From positions 2,304,001 to 2,368,000 of the forward strand of contig CBDBZU010000004.1 in NCBI GenBank assembly GCA_965213625.1: a stretch of DNA of 64,000 nt. Direction: 5' to 3'. The stretch is from a bacterium. GTDB lineage: Bacteria > UBA8248. The translations under genes were made by a program, and so were the position numbers. The notes beneath the pieces are model-generated. The model was not told the origin of the DNA. It saw only the letters and a program-made list of their open reading frames with translations, and made no database searches. This document shows positions 33,186 through 41,586 of this stretch, in pieces (the first letter of the stretch is position 1; each line of letters begins with the position of its first letter).

Positions 33186-33365
33186 CATTCCGGCGCATGC
33201 CGGAATGAAGGTGAAGAACCGCGTCCGCCGTAGGGACAGGCCCCTGTGCCTGTCCTAGGTTCCCGTCATTGTTTCCTTACCGATTGGATTTGGTTGTAGG
33301 GGCCGCATATATGCGGCCCGTGGTGGGAAGGCGAAAAGGGAGGGTCGCATATATGCGACCCCTAC
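33186..33365. repeat. Cluster of REP-like palindromes (GTAG family)
   Basis: CATTCCGGCGCATGCCGGAATG (33186); GTAGGGACAGGC..GCCTGTCC (33230); GTAGGGGCCGCATATATGCGGCCC (33296) with inverted GGGTCGCATATATGCGACCCCTAC (33342). Confidence 0.8.
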
Positions 33366-36556: not shown

Positions 36557-37960
36557 ATGGCGGCATATGACGTGGCGGTTATCGGCGGGGGACCTGCGGG
36601 CTATGTGGCGGGCGTGCGTGTGGCCCAGAGCGGGGGAAGCTGCGTGGTCATCGAACGAGACGAGCTGGGCGGCACCTGCCTGAACTGGGGCTGCATCCCG
36701 AGCAAGAGCCTGATCGCCGCCGCGGAAGTTTTGAGGAACATCAGGAACGCGGACGCCTACGGCATCGAGGTCACGGGCGAGGTGCGCGCCGATCTCGCTG
36801 CCATGGTCGAGCGCAAGGACAAGATAGTCGCAGGCCTGGTAAAGGGAATCGGCGGGCTGTTCAAGGCCCACGGGGTGGATCACATGGCGGGTGACGCCGA
36901 GATACTGGAGATGGGTAAAATCTCGGTGCGCGGAAAAGAAGGGGAACACGAGATAGTCGAGGCCGATAAGATCATCATCTGCACCGGTTCCCGGCCTGCG
37001 CAGATTTCCGCCTTTCCCATCGACGGTAATAAAATCATCTCCTCCGAACAGGCGGTGCATCTCAAAACTTTGCCCAAGAGGGTGCTCATCGTCGGCGCGG
37101 GCGTCATCGGCTGTGAGTTTGCGTGTCTGTATAGAGAACTGGGCGCCGAAGTCGTCATGGTGGAGTTGCTCGACCGCGTCCTGCCGCTGGGGGACGAGGA
37201 CGTCTCGAAACTCATGGCGCGCGAATTAAGAAAACAGAAGATTAAGGTGCGCCTGAATGAGAAGTTAACGGGCGTCTCGCGCAAGGGCAGGGCGATGGTC
37301 GCCGAATTCGAGGGTTCGGATGAGGAGGAACGCGCCGACCTCGTACTCGTCTCCGTGGGCCGGACGATGAACACCGACGGGCTGGGGCTCGAGCGAATCG
37401 GGGTGGAGCTCGGTCCGCGCGGCGAAATCAGGGTGAACGATATGATGGAGACGAACGTCGCGGGCGTTTATGCGGCGGGGGACGTGGTGGGCGAGCCCAT
37501 GCTCGCGCACGTGGCCTCGGCGGAAGGAGTCGCCGCTGCGGAAAACGCCATGGGCGCGGAGATTCGCATGGATTACCGGGCGATTCCGGCGGGTATCTTC
37601 ACGCATCCCGAGATCGGCGTCGTCGGCATGGCCGAGCACGAGGCGGAGAAGGCCGGTCACGCAGTGCGCGTGGGCAAGTTCTCGGTGCGCTCTCTGGGCA
37701 AGGCGCAGGCCGAACGCGCGCTGGAGGGCGAGGTGAAGGTCATCGCCGACGCGGGAGATGACGCCATTTTGGGCGTTCACATCGTAGGCGCCCACGCCGC
37801 TGACATCGTGCACGAGGCCGCCGTCGCCATGCAGCACCGCGTCACCGCCTCGGACCTGGCCGGCACCATCCACTCCCACCCCACGCTCTCGGAAGCCGTG
37901 ATGGAAGCGGCATTGGACGTCCACGGCGAAGCCATCCACGCGCCGCCGAAGAGACAGTAG
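36557..37960 (+). CDS. lpdA: Dihydrolipoamide dehydrogenase
   Basis: GGGPAGY, GGTCLNWGCIPSK, GAGVIGCE, HSHPTLSE; RBS AAGGAGG. Confidence 0.95.
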   Translation: MAAYDVAVIGGGPAGYVAGVRVAQSGGSCVVIERDELGGTCLNWGCIPSKSLIAAAEVLRNIRNADAYGIEVTGEVRADLAAMVERKDKIVAGLVKGIGGLFKAHGVDHMAGDAEILEMGKISVRGKEGEHEIVEADKIIICTGSRPAQISAFPIDGNKIISSEQAVHLKTLPKRVLIVGAGVIGCEFACLYRELGAEVVMVELLDRVLPLGDEDVSKLMARELRKQKIKVRLNEKLTGVSRKGRAMVAEFEGSDEEERADLVLVSVGRTMNTDGLGLERIGVELGPRGEIRVNDMMETNVAGVYAAGDVVGEPMLAHVASAEGVAAAENAMGAEIRMDYRAIPAGIFTHPEIGVVGMAEHEAEKAGHAVRVGKFSVRSLGKAQAERALEGEVKVIADAGDDAILGVHIVGAHAADIVHEAAVAMQHRVTASDLAGTIHSHPTLSEAVMEAALDVHGEAIHAPPKRQ

Positions 37961-38068
37961 GCTTGCGCTCTGCGGGCTCGATTCTGGCTTTCTCTGGATT
38001 GTTGAATAAAGCCTTAATTTCTTGATTCGGCGTATAGGGCCGACTGGGGAGGGAGGGTTGTGGTTTTT

Positions 38069-38092
38069 GTAGGTCGGACATATATGTCTGAC
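38069..38092 (+). repeat. GTAG REP (left unit of the REPIN hosting the IS1111 element)
   Basis: GTAG+GTCGGACATATATGTCTGAC. Confidence 0.7.
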
Positions 38093-38116
38093 ATACATGC
38101 GTACATGGACGCCCCC

Positions 38117-38378
38117 CTGGAATGCAAGCGGTTTTTTGGGAGGGTTCGGCGCAAAGCGGTTCGACTCAGTCGTACATTCGGCCTCTTCGTTGCGGCGCTT
38201 CGTAACGGCCGCGGGCCCGTATGGAGATGCGCGGGTCGGGTCCGAATCGGCCCGGCGAGCTCGATGGTTCGCTCGTCGCATGTAACTGGTTGCCCCGACC
38301 CCGTCTCGATGACCGTTTGCCCTTACTCCTCCTGTGGCCTGCCCACATTCCTCCCGGCTCTATCCGCGCGCCCGCCGC
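38117..38378 (-). ncRNA. Putative seekRNA/bridge RNA region of the IS1111 element
   Basis: Exact matches to both target flanks (38248-38254, 38277-38284) around a hairpin, and to the donor junction (38171-38177). Confidence 0.7.
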
Positions 38379-39059
38379 TCAGGCGAGGGGCGCCGGTTCC
38401 CTGTAGTCGTCCTTGTTCCGCATCAGCGCCCACGCGATGCGCGCCATTTTGTTGGCCAGCGCCACCGCGACGAGCATCCTCGGCTTGCGCGCCAGCATCC
38501 GGGCCAGCCACGAACCCGGCGGCGCGCCGCGCCGGAGCGCCTGGCGAATCACCGACATCGCGCCCGTGACCAACAGCCGCCTCACGTCGCGCTGGCCCAT
38601 CTTCGATACCCGGCCCAGGCGGGGCTTGCCCCCCGTCGAGTGTTGCCGGGGCACCAGTCCCAGCCAGGCCGAGAAGTCCCGGCCCCGCCGGAAGTTCTCC
38701 ATCGGCGGCGCGAAGGCACGGATCGCAGACGCCGTAACCGGACCCACCCCCGGGATACGCATCAGACGCCGCGCCTCCGCGTCCGCCGCGTCGTTCTTGT
38801 GGCGCTTCACGTACGGCTTCACGTAGGCCGGCGGCGCGAGCCGAACCTCGTGGCCGAGCTTCGCAATCTCACGGCCCCAGCGGTGCGCCCCCGCGCACGC
38901 CTCCATCGCCACCACGCAGCGCGGCTGTTTGGCCAGGAAGTTCAGCAGACCCGCCCGACCGAGCTTCTTGCGGAACGCTACCGAACCGTCCGCGCGCGCC
39001 CCGTGGAGTTGAAAACTGTTTTTCGCCAAGTCGATGCCGATGATGTAGACTCCTTCCAT
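38379..39059 (-). pseudogene. IS110-family DEDD recombinase with an in-frame internal deletion (226 aa)
   Basis: IGIDLAK, MEAC, KNDAADAEA fused directly to RRLMRIPGVG; WLGLVPRQHSTGG; the coiled-coil middle is missing; RBS AGGAGG. Confidence 0.85.
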
Positions 39060-39158
39060 GGATGCCTCCTTCCGGGCGGTGTGTGACGTTGCCTCGCCAC
39101 ATTCTAAACTGCCGGAAGGGGGCGTCCACCCCATCGGCCCGACCGGTTCGTGGCTTGC

Positions 39159-39182
39159 GGGTCGCATTTATGCGACCCCTAC
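39159..39182 (-). repeat. GTAG REP (right, inverted unit)
   Basis: GGGTCGCATTTATGCGACCCCTAC, one mismatch from 33342-33365. Confidence 0.8.
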
Positions 39183-39284
39183 ACCCCGAATAAGGAATGA
39201 CGGCAGTGGTCAATTCTGGGCGAAGAGGATTTTTCCAACAGCCCCCACAAGGCTCTCGAAACAGCCTTGCGGATTCCGTAATGC

Positions 39285-40265
39285 TTAATACGGCACGTCG
39301 ATGAGCATACCCTCACCCGATCGCATGTCTTCTTCCAGAAGCTCGCGCATCGCTTTCGTCACCGGGCCGGGCTTTCCGTCCCCGATGATTTGGTCATCCC
39401 ACTGCACCACGGGGGCGACGTATATCGAGCTTCCGATGAGCATCATCTCCGCGGACGCCTTGGCCTCGGCCACGGGAATGTCGTCCACCACCACGTCGGC
39501 GATGACCTCTTGCTCCACGAGGCGGCTTGCGAGTTCGAGCAGGCGCTTCACCGTGCAGCCCGAGAGGATGTTCTCGAATTTCGGGTGCCGCAGCACGCGC
39601 TCGTTCGTCACGAAGGCGCAGTTCATGTTCGAGCCCTCGCCCACGTTCCCGGCCTCATCCACGAAAATCCCGTTGTCCAAGCCCTGTTCTTTCGCCTCCA
39701 TCTGCATCAGCGTGTTGGGCAGGTAGTTCGTGCTCTTGGTGACGGCGTAGAGCGGCGGCTTGATGGGGTAGGTCGTCGTCATCACCCGCATTCCCTCGGC
39801 GTAGTAGCGCTCGGGATAATCCAGGCCGCCAAAGATCATCACGAAAAATGCAGGCTTGGCGTCGCCTGCAGGGATGAGCCCCAGGTTGCCTGTCCCGGAA
39901 GATGCCCAGTAGCGGATTGAACCCTCGCGGCGGCCCGAGAGCGCGCTCGTGCGGATGACGATATCGCGCATCTCCTCGCGGCTCGGCAGTTCGAGTTTCG
40001 ATGCCTCCGCTGAGCGGATGAAGCGGTCCAGATGGTTTTCCAGGTCGTAGATCTTCCCCTCGATGATGGCCGCCGTGTCGAAGATGCCGTGTCCCCGGTG
40101 CACCATGTGGTCGTCGAAGGGGATGACCATCAGGTCGGGGTCCGTCACCACGCCGCCCAGGTGGCTCGAATAAAACGCCGAATAATCGACCTCCTGCGTC
40201 TCGCGCAGGTTCTTGAGACTATCGAGGACGTCCTCTCTCGTGAGGACGCCGATGTTTTCCGCCAT
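39285..40265 (-). CDS. PLP-dependent aminotransferase class IV (D-amino acid aminotransferase/ADC lyase-like)
   Basis: DHMVHRGHGIFDT, HLDRF, KSTNY, EGSNMN, ILSGCT, GDGKPGP; RBS AAGGAG. Confidence 0.92.
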   Translation of the reverse strand: MAENIGVLTREDVLDSLKNLRETQEVDYSAFYSSHLGGVVTDPDLMVIPFDDHMVHRGHGIFDTAAIIEGKIYDLENHLDRFIRSAEASKLELPSREEMRDIVIRTSALSGRREGSIRYWASSGTGNLGLIPAGDAKPAFFVMIFGGLDYPERYYAEGMRVMTTTYPIKPPLYAVTKSTNYLPNTLMQMEAKEQGLDNGIFVDEAGNVGEGSNMNCAFVTNERVLRHPKFENILSGCTVKRLLELASRLVEQEVIADVVVDDIPVAEAKASAEMMLIGSSIYVAPVVQWDDQIIGDGKPGPVTKAMRELLEEDMRSGEGMLIDVPY

Positions 40266-40443
40266 GGCCTTCTCCTTGTGCGTCGAATCGAATCCCTGAA
40301 ATTTCAGGGAAGCATACCGGTGGATGAAACCGCATTTTTTCGATTTCTGCCGCATGATGCCGCTTGGGTGATTTTCGGGCAAGGGCCTGCTACATTATCG
40401 CCCGGATGGCTTGGGTCTATGAAGTGAACCGGAGGCATGGTCG

Positions 40444-41586
40444 ATGCAGGACGATGTTTATTTGAACGACGAGCAGACGATGGTGCGGCAGATGACGCGC
40501 GATTTCTGCGAGCGCGAGATCGCCCCCCGGGCGTCGGAGATAGACGAGGGCCGCTTCCCGGCGGAGGTCGTGAAGAGCATGGGCGAACTCGGGCTGATGG
40601 GCCTTACGGTGCCGGATTCCTACGGCGGAGGGGGGGCGGACCCCGTCTCGATGGCGCTGGCGACCGAAGAAGTCGCCGCCGCGTGTCCTTCGACGAGCGC
40701 CATTTTCGCCGCGCACAACTCCCTGGTCTGTGAACCTGTCTACCGCTTCGGCAGCAAGGGACAGAAGGAAAAGTATTTACACGGCCTGGCGAGCGGCGCG
40801 AGCATCGGCGCATTCGCCCTGACGGAGCCGGGCGCGGGTTCGGACGCCGCCTCGCTCACCACCAGCGCGGTGCGCGAGGGAAATGCCTACCGCATCAACG
40901 GCGTGAAGCGCTTCATCACCAGCGGCAAGCAGTCGGGCCTGTGCCTTCTCTTCGCCGTGACCGATCGCGCTATGCGCCACAAGGGGCTGAGCGCCTTCCT
41001 GGTGCCGACGGATGCCGAGGGCTTTGAGGTCGTGCGCAGCGAAGACAAGATGGGGATGCACGGCTGCTCGATATCGGAGCTTCGCTTCGACGCCGTGGAA
41101 CTGCCCGAAGAGAACCGCATGGGGGAGGAGGGGCAGGGCTTCGAGCTTGCGATGCGCATCCTGGATTCGGGGCGCATTATCGTCGCGGCCCAGGGCCTGG
41201 GCTTCGCGCGGGCGTGTCTCGACGCCTCGGTGGCCTATGCGCGCGAGCGCGAGACGTTCGGCGTGCCGATAAAGGATCACCAGCCCGTTGCGTGGAAGCT
41301 CGCCGACATGGCCACCCGCGTCCACGGCGCTCGGCTGCTCACCCTGAAGGCCGCGCGGCTCAAGGCGGCGGGTGAGCCCTATTCGTCCGTGGCCGCCATC
41401 GCCAAGGTATTCGCAACCGACGCCGCCCAGCGGAATGCCGAAGAGGGCGTTCAACTCCACGGGGGGAACGGCTACATGCGCGAGTATCCCGTGGAGCGCT
41501 TCTACCGGGCGTCCAAGGTGACGCAAATTTACGAGGGGACGAACGAGATACTCCGCCAGGTCATCGCCAAGCACCTGCTCAACTGA
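40444..41586 (+). CDS. Acyl-CoA dehydrogenase (short/branched-chain type)
   Basis: FALTEPGAGSD, NGVKRFIT, QLHGGNGY, IYEGTNEI. Confidence 0.95.
   Translation: MQDDVYLNDEQTMVRQMTRDFCEREIAPRASEIDEGRFPAEVVKSMGELGLMGLTVPDSYGGGGADPVSMALATEEVAAACPSTSAIFAAHNSLVCEPVYRFGSKGQKEKYLHGLASGASIGAFALTEPGAGSDAASLTTSAVREGNAYRINGVKRFITSGKQSGLCLLFAVTDRAMRHKGLSAFLVPTDAEGFEVVRSEDKMGMHGCSISELRFDAVELPEENRMGEEGQGFELAMRILDSGRIIVAAQGLGFARACLDASVAYARERETFGVPIKDHQPVAWKLADMATRVHGARLLTLKAARLKAAGEPYSSVAAIAKVFATDAAQRNAEEGVQLHGGNGYMREYPVERFYRASKVTQIYEGTNEILRQVIAKHLLN

Follow-up and report, generated by a model that had tools for sequence, protein, structure and literature searches.

The window analysed here is the whole stretch of 64,000 nucleotides at G000:C4:2304001-2368000 of a bacterial genome; positions without the prefix C4 are window positions. 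On its minus strand, at 38102-39136, lies an internally deleted copy of an insertion sequence (IS) of the IS1111 group within the IS110 family. We conclude, with a probability of roughly 0.9, that this element belongs to a family of copies that are guided by their own RNA toward one sequence variant of the repetitive extragenic palindromes (REPs) of the genome in which they reside. Five copies were found in the genome and are called W (the window copy), B, C, D and E. The element and its immediate surroundings are made up as follows.

38069-38092, no strand assigned: second-class REP GTAGGTCGGACATATATGTCTGAC, abutting the target half; several empty sites have the same layout, as GGGCCGCATGTATG-TCGGACATATATGTCCGACCTAC
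38092-38099, minus strand: right target half CATGTATG as read on the transposase strand, identical in all five copies and part of the 14-mer GGGCCGCATGTATG
38100-38101, minus strand: CG core at the right-end junction, read directly; an identical CG stands at 39135-39136
38102-39136, minus strand: internally deleted IS1111-group copy, 1033 nt plus one CG core; the full-length copies have 345 bp more
38106-38116, minus strand: right subterminal inverted repeat GGGGGCGTCCA, 11 bp, 4 nt inside the core
38379-39059, minus strand: transposase remnant of 226 amino acids, in which the N-terminal DEDD part and the C-terminal PF02371 domain are kept and the 115 residues between them are missing
38772-38786, minus strand: deletion junction, where one copy of a 15-bp imperfect direct repeat remains, seen in the five-copy alignment and as contig breaks
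39118-39128, minus strand: left subterminal inverted repeat TGGACGCCCCC, 11 bp, the reverse complement of 38106-38116, 6 nt inside the core and conserved in position in the homolog alignment
39137-39141, minus strand: left target half CGGGC as read on the transposase strand; GGGC is present in all five copies
39142-39182, no strand assigned: spacer (39142-39158) and first REP of the doublet (39159-39182), a stretch identical in W, B and E

The product of the window copy matches PF02371 at 6.7e-23 and reaches only 16.6 bits for PF01548 against a cut-off of 29 bits. The full-length transposase, which is 341 amino acids long and encoded at three other loci of the genome, matches both domains (PF01548 at 2.3e-12, PF02371 at 5.5e-23) as well as the NF033542 model for 'IS110 family RNA-guided transposase', where it scores 316.5 bits against a cut-off of 140 bits. 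The closest relatives found on plasmids, at 63-67% identity, are alphaproteobacterial 'IS110 family transposase' genes with no name of their own. Among named elements of the IS1111 family it resembles the IS5075/IS4321 transposases (41% identity over 98% of the length), which nevertheless form a distant branch and have Tn21-type inverted repeats as their target; subterminal inverted repeats are reportedly named in the title of the work by Partridge and Hall (2003) on IS5075/IS4321. The IS1111 group has been described by transposases of 330-350 amino acids with the motif GL-P----S(t)G and by a longer non-coding region downstream of the gene (PMC11187229), together with subterminal inverted repeats of about 7-17 bp (PMC11208160). 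The motif is readable as GLVPRQHSTG in the full-length protein (P0001) and is kept in the 226-residue window copy, and the non-coding DNA of the element measures 277 nt downstream of the transposase gene (38378-38102) and 75 nt upstream of it (39134-39060). All the IS1111-group features that were checked are present in the full-length copies, namely the domains, length, motif, repeats, downstream non-coding region and duplication-free, site-specific insertion. The assignment to an IS1111-type element made in an earlier note, which was written from the sequence of the window, agrees with the domains, the NF033542 match, the repeats and the downstream non-coding region.

The five near-identical copies were returned by BLAST of window positions 38000-39300 against the whole genome, and their ends were set by the divergence of their flanks. 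Two copies are short (W and B, the latter at C4:592729-593820 with the deleted element at C4:592778-593810), and three are each 345 bp longer (C at C4:2211879-2213298, D at C4:521650-523063 and E at C4:1822301-1823739). In a five-way alignment the copies differ solely in their flanks and in the deletion, while the ends, the inverted repeats and the RNA region are letter-identical. The element is also carried by metagenome contigs of three runs, which break off at 38092-38100, at 39136-39140 and at the deletion junction, and the loose contig ends at that junction run on into full-length sequence. The locus is also represented without the element, in a 7417-nt contig of a related strain that spans both flanks and in which 54 other letters replace 38072-39155.

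Read on the transposase strand, each of the five copies has the form GGGC-CG-[element]-CG-CATGTATG and lies inside a REP doublet, with no duplication beyond the shared core; the earlier note had proposed testing whether all copies insert at the CG of REPs. The 14-mer GGGCCGCATGTATG is found uninterrupted at nine other places, each time in a pair of inverted GTAG-type REPs, of which it occupies the second. At the fifth base on the left, a C is present in four of the five occupied sites versus two of the nine empty ones, and this C extends the match to the full 7-nt guide described below. A far commoner REP variant, GGGCCGCATATATG, which includes the REP at 33296, is never occupied in this genome; the other REP targets named in the analysis are GGGACGCATGTATG and, for the second-class REP, GTAGGTCGGACATATAT. 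Excision of 38102-39136 restores CATACATG-CG-GCCCG, which differs by one mismatch from the REP starting at 33296 (GTAGGGGCCGCATATATGCGGCCCG). Both this and the presence of GTAG REPs at 38069-38092 and 39159-39182 had been read correctly in the earlier note. Its placement of the site between two inverted REPs was right about the REPs but not about the insertion, which lies inside the second REP of the doublet.

The non-coding region downstream of the transposase gene contains the following words and predicted structures.

38277-38284, minus strand: 5' target guide UACAUGCG, complementary to CG-CATGTA on the transposase strand
38248-38254, minus strand: 3' target guide CGGGCCG, which repeats the left target arm plus core and so would pair with the other strand
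38171-38177, minus strand: donor guide AUGUACG, identical to the last five right-end bases plus core
38221-38226, minus strand: second donor arm CUCCAU, complementary to the left-end ATGGGG with one G-U pair
38233-38301, minus strand: predicted target-binding module, with stem P1 (38301-38294 with 38240-38233), P1b (CC 38289-38288 with GG 38243-38242), a large internal loop and hairpin P2 (38275-38256)
38180-38217, minus strand: predicted stem P3 (GGCC 38217-38214 with GGCC 38183-38180) enclosing hairpin P4 (38212-38192), between the two donor arms

The three guide words named in the earlier note were all recovered on the minus strand at the positions it gave. For the partial second donor arm that it had suspected near 38218-38224, the best candidate is CUCCAU at 38226-38221, which covaries weakly with the left end; its gapped core match, CCAUACG, is unsupported, and the AC after CUCCAU (38220-38219) hardly varies and does not follow the core. 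The frequency of such matches was assessed in 20000 dinucleotide shuffles of the 277-nt non-coding region. Single words were found in 3428 (CGGGCCG), 32 (TACATGCG) and 124 (ATGTACG) shuffles, both target matches in 4, and all three words in none. The guide matches in the window copy are beyond chance.

We then compared the guides with their own sites across homologs. A scan of one genome per species yielded 544 relatives, from which 80 loci with 57-80% protein identity were kept. Together with the loci of this genome, 84 near-full-length matches were available, of which 66 had enough flank. Ends could be recognised at the aligned positions in 53 of these, and they yielded 44 distinct guide pairs; the 13 loci dropped were L011, L012, L015, L018, L019, L039, L042, L045, L052, L068, L069, L085 and L086. 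The two-base core is equal at both ends in 39 of the 44 representatives (TG in 24, CG in 12, and AG, CA and one other in 1 each). The 3' loop word agrees with the left flank of its own element at 4.20 of 5 positions, compared with 1.39 for non-cognate flanks, and 25 of the 44 agree at all five. For the 5' loop word, the longest exact complementary run to its own core plus right flank averages 5.82, versus 3.27 for non-cognate pairs. The donor word after the GGCC stem agrees with the right end of its own element at 4.91 of 5 positions (3.81 non-cognate), and is identical to it at all five in 42 of the 44 representatives, across 13 different end sequences. The observed means of all three guides were reached by none of 5000 permutations. 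The second donor arm was compared in 36 of the 44 representatives, 8 being dropped for short extraction. Its CCAU is invariant opposite an invariant ATGG, and a difference over the next four positions emerges when wobble pairs are counted (2.69 versus 2.51; 10 of 5000 permutations as high). The guide programme aimed at REPs that the earlier note proposed is thus supported by covariation over 44 guide pairs.

The same alignment provided a consensus structure from 44 homologs, consisting of an 8-bp P1, the 2-bp P1b, an internal loop, P2 and a GGCC/GGCC stem around a GCGGC hairpin. Both target guides fall in unpaired columns of one internal loop between covarying stems, so that they are not buried in stems, a point on which the earlier note had made its reading depend. 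Pairs changed on both sides were found at 6 of 8 positions in P1, 1 of 2 in P1b, 4 of 4 in P2 and 3 of 5 in P4, amounting to 14 of 23; P3 is invariant in all 44 sequences and therefore uninformative. Overall, 97.1% of cells pair, versus at most 43% when the partners are slid by one to three columns, and none of 500 shuffles was as high on every structure measure. A covariance model built from the 44 sequences finds eight places in the genome, which are the five copies, two relatives named F and G, and a remnant at C4:4124872-4125019; this search of the genome found no further orphan RNA genes.

Within the genus, a match to the non-coding region was found in 14 of the 23 genomes searched. The earlier note had turned on whether homologs inserted in other targets keep their guides unchanged, and their guides were found to be changed. 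One genome (G004) keeps UACAUGCG and has the site CG-CATGTATG, and another (G008) carries the guides UAUAUGCG and GGGUCG at the site GGGT-CG-CATATATG. Two copies in G002 carry CGGGACG at GGGA-CG-CATATATG, and the G011 copies carry AUAUAUGUCC and AGGUCG at GTAGGT-CG-GACATATATGTCC (also written GACATATAT), a site of the second REP class, the one next to which the window copy also lies. In the genome of the window itself, relative F (C4:927666-928960, 72% protein identity) carries ATACACG at its right end as well as in its RNA, and relative G (C4:4129761-4132490, interrupted) has GUAUGCG and sits at GTATG-CG. Contigs from other runs contain guide variants of the element, namely 38282 G>A, which gives UAUAUGCG (three runs), and 38250 G>T, which gives CGGGACG (two runs). 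As a separate observation, these two changes redirect the specified site to other REP variants present in the genome (GGGACG... and ...CATATATG).

Two explanations that dispense with guides were weighed against these results. The matches could have arisen by chance from searching many short words in a GC-rich region, since the words are only 7-8 nt long, the search had several degrees of freedom and the fold of the whole region is not significant. The joint occurrence of the three words, reached in no shuffle, speaks against this, and the finding that the same alignment columns predict the flanks of independent elements already contradicts it; we regard chance as a negligible prospect. The other explanation is that the recombinase recognises the REP hairpin itself, as a DNA sequence or structure bound by protein, and that the non-coding matches are by-products, such as REP-like sequence that the element has acquired. 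It has long been known that REPs, which are structured, serve as targets of insertion sequences, a connection in which Tobes and Pareja (2006) are reportedly cited; CGGGCCG by itself is frequent in the shuffles, and the right target arm CATGTA resembles the right end of the element, CCATGTA. Homologs with 57-80% protein identity, however, insert in unrelated and mostly non-REP sites while their loop words change in step and their stems are kept, and single guide-base differences between congeneric siblings match single-base REP variants. Direct recognition of the hairpin is in our view very improbable, and guidance by the RNA of the element is the reading we retain.

Several results weigh against guidance by RNA as set out here. 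A single-sequence fold of the non-coding region is no better than shuffles (z = 0.77; 158 of 200 fold at least as well), and a search of 37000-40500 against Rfam in evalue mode returned no match, which shows only that no curated family matched; given an uninformative fold and no Rfam match, the comparative test described above was needed. Agreement across homologs is incomplete, with 11 of the 44 representatives matching the left flank at three or fewer of five positions and 12 having a longest right-flank match of four or less. For the second donor arm, exact matching over the next four positions gives 2.03 versus 1.89, and 197 of 5000 permutations were as high. In the 43-sequence alignment to the right end no stem closing the donor loop was found; RNAalifold proposes a weak long-range helix that lacks compensatory support, so that we claim no donor-closing stem. 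An 82-nt seekRNA suffices for ISEc11 (PMC11187229), so the donor part may be dispensable in this group. The target words of relative F match its own flanks only at 5 of 7 positions and over 5 nt, the site of both G002 copies has one mismatch to the 5' guide, and 3 of 10 close congeneric copies (L101, L114 and L120) mismatch on the right in the register read. Contigs from the RNA run X18 cover 38092-38417, 38772-38848 and 38895-39067 at a depth of 3-4 and no other parts of the element, which is not proof of transcription. Finally, the recombinase of the window copy is itself truncated.

In L101, L114 and L120 (genomes G012 and G011) the right flanks fit the 5' guide of another subfamily, and L102 is one base short at the core as read. 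The misfit of the former three could be due to recombination between copies after insertion, or to loose specificity beyond the first four to five bases.

From the observed anatomy, the site specificity, the covariation of guides with targets and ends and the covarying stems, we infer that the element produces an RNA, which is bound by the enzyme and steers recombination, that a circular form arises and that enzyme supplied in trans mobilises the deleted copy. In the proposed mechanism the full-length copies would provide the 341-residue DEDD recombinase, and a seekRNA or bridge RNA would be produced from the region downstream of its gene. Within one internal loop of this RNA, UACAUGCG would pair with one strand of CG-CATGTA and CGGGCCG with the other strand of CGGGC-CG, and the two target guides would thereby jointly specify CGGGC-CG-CATGTA, a combination found only in one REP sequence variant of the genome. 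A second part of the RNA may recognise the joined ends of the excised circle, through AUGUACG, which equals the right end plus core, and CUCCAU, which is complementary to the left end. The element would then be inserted, without a duplication, by exchange at the CG core. The window copy, with its ends and RNA gene intact, could move only with enzyme from the three full-length copies. Among contigs from four runs no listed joint connects the two ends of the element, which says nothing about the absence of a circle.

W and B share an in-frame deletion of 345 bp that is bounded by 15-bp imperfect direct repeats, and the window copy is probably non-autonomous. It might also be an inert relic that makes no working RNA and is not mobilised, the identical deletion of B having arisen by gene conversion or by a second slippage at the same 15-bp repeats rather than by transposition. 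The loss of 115 residues is in keeping with a relic; when direct repeats are fixed, deletion between them can happen again and give the same result, and a conversion tract reaching from the deletion into the neighbouring REP would explain why W and B also share 45 nt of flank. On the other side, the ends, inverted repeats and whole RNA region of W are identical to those of the full-length copies, three intact recombinase genes are present in the same genome, and for ISEc11 enzyme and RNA supplied in trans move a mini-element (PMC11187229). We consider an inert relic somewhat unlikely. A more far-reaching idea, which we put forward as speculation and hold to be clearly unlikely as a whole, is that deleted copies of the W and B type are natural guide-carrying mini-elements with their own ends and their own seekRNA gene, moved by the three full-length copies, perhaps with a shortened DEDD-plus-C-terminal protein that interferes with the full-length ones. 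In the same scenario the guides of congeneric siblings would be retuned base by base to REP variants or classes, and the REP repertoire would act as a set of evolving landing pads.

REP targeting by a seekRNA or bridge RNA has already been published for ISPa11 and IS621, and our results add no new mechanism. ISPa11 has Pseudomonas REPs as its targets, and an RNA of this kind co-purifies with its transposase (PMC11187229). Bridge RNAs have been predicted in the right end of 93% of IS1111 elements, with binding patterns predicted for ISPa11 among six elements (PMC11208160). In IS1111 seekRNAs the top-strand match comes first, on the 5' side, and overlaps the bottom-strand match where the insertion occurs (PMC11187229). 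In the element described here, the match complementary to the top strand likewise lies 5' of the bottom-strand match, with the overlap at the CG core; this order and overlap, together with an RNA downstream of the gene, identify it as one of a known kind. ISPa11, an IS1111-family element of Pseudomonas aeruginosa, is similar in its fixed place in host REPs and in its downstream RNA with the same match order (PMC11187229). It differs in host, REP family and target sequence, and the likeness is one of description, as our element is known from its sequence. A further difference is that the donor-end guide here covaries clearly with the right end, a feature not described in sections 6, 9, 10 and 13 of PMC11187229.

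IS621, an IS110-group element of E. coli, shares an RNA-guided DEDD recombinase, two opposite-strand guides for each DNA partner that overlap at a two-base core, and natural REP targets, which it recognises through its bridge RNA with one mismatch tolerated (PMC11208160). In contrast, its RNA is located in a long left end, upstream of the gene, and its inverted repeats measure 2-3 bp (PMC11208160), whereas here the RNA lies downstream and the repeats have 11 bp; moreover, no closed donor-binding loop could be demonstrated in our element. ISPpu9 and ISPpu10 of Pseudomonas putida are also IS110-family elements found in REPs that form clusters of alternating orientation, with insertion at a fixed dinucleotide (PMC12288879), and differ from the present case, in which the guides sit in a downstream RNA module. 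The element, its occupied sites and its still-empty sites are seen together in a single genome, which makes this a clean and unusually readable natural example. The single-base guide changes of relatives, matched to REP variants, and the retargeting to the second REP class could define mismatch tolerance and minimal guide length. The natural guide and target pairs form a ready test panel for IS1111-type recombinases, and the deletion derivative is a test case for trans mobilisation in nature.

The REPs themselves were surveyed with the 14-mer, which has 166 matches with two or fewer mismatches in the genome, a large share of them in GTAG...CTAC palindromes arranged as inverted pairs. The sole PF01797 (Y1 transposase) match of the genome (27.5 bits with neighbours) lies in a 177-residue open reading frame with REPs on both sides (L087 1453-1986 = G000:C4:1978566-1979099, minus strand). 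GTAG-bearing palindromic repeats in many intergenic copies and in inverted pairs, together with a REP-flanked Y1 gene, characterise REP doublets with a RAYT transposase, and the setting of the Y1 reading frame is the one expected for a REP-associated transposase. A REP-like stretch at C4:1978812-1978850 lies inside the Y1 reading frame without breaking it. The REP half GGGCCGCAT(G/A)TATG occurs with three endings, namely its own palindrome arm CGGCCCCTAC, the second-class REP TCGGACATATATGTCCGACCTAC and a third hairpin, TAGCGC...GCGCTAC (examples at C4:554803, 1979346, 2164462, 2135639 and 3407729). With three alternative endings of one REP half, the REP classes look nested or chimeric.

An identical 45-nt flank stands at the left end of W (39137-39182), B (C4:592729-592775) and E (C4:1823695-1823739) and is composed of GCCC, a spacer of about 17-18 nt and a REP, while the opposite flanks of the three copies diverge directly after CATGTATG. 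BLAST found no further copy of the spacer in the genome. A longer element using TG cores beside GTAG was ruled out, as the empty sites it implies would be half-REPs. A flank carried along with the element was also considered; a REP stands at the matching place in element-free relatives (the related contig for W, genome G002 for B), which speaks against this idea and indicates that the W and B flank was not simply carried in. It is plausible that the shared flank reflects a subfamily of REP doublets that matches the full 7-nt guide, given the C at the fifth position noted above. The combination of deletion and flank in W and B could be due to transposition in trans into similar REP doublets, to one gene-conversion tract or to recurrent slippage.

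The second subfamily in this genome, with about 72% protein identity, is present in three forms, namely the intact F, G with an interruption of about 1.3 kb, and the remnant recovered by the covariance model, an orphan right-end fragment that starts within P2. In G, the stop codon is followed by about 15 consecutive G residues. Allowing up to two mismatches, a search for the predicted and the actual targets of F returned many scattered hits. In L007 (2226 onward; the same genome as G011), about 90 nt following the internal donor-guide word are repeated past the right end. The arrangement suggests that the guide-coding DNA recombined with the identical right end and so produced a tandem duplication.

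Two promoter-like sites were noted in the element.

39101-39128, minus strand: TGGACG, a 16-nt spacer and TAGAAT upstream of the transposase gene, a consensus match only
38122-38127, minus strand: TTGCAT, a conserved stretch that may be a -35 box; in the 43-sequence alignment the conserved letters are CTTGC

The former site was found once, versus a mean of 0.2 in shuffles. Junction promoters have been described for the family (PMC12288879). Judging from the spacing, a promoter may be completed in the circle alone, with the -35 box at TTGCAT and a -10 box spanning TA-CG-AT of the joined ends.

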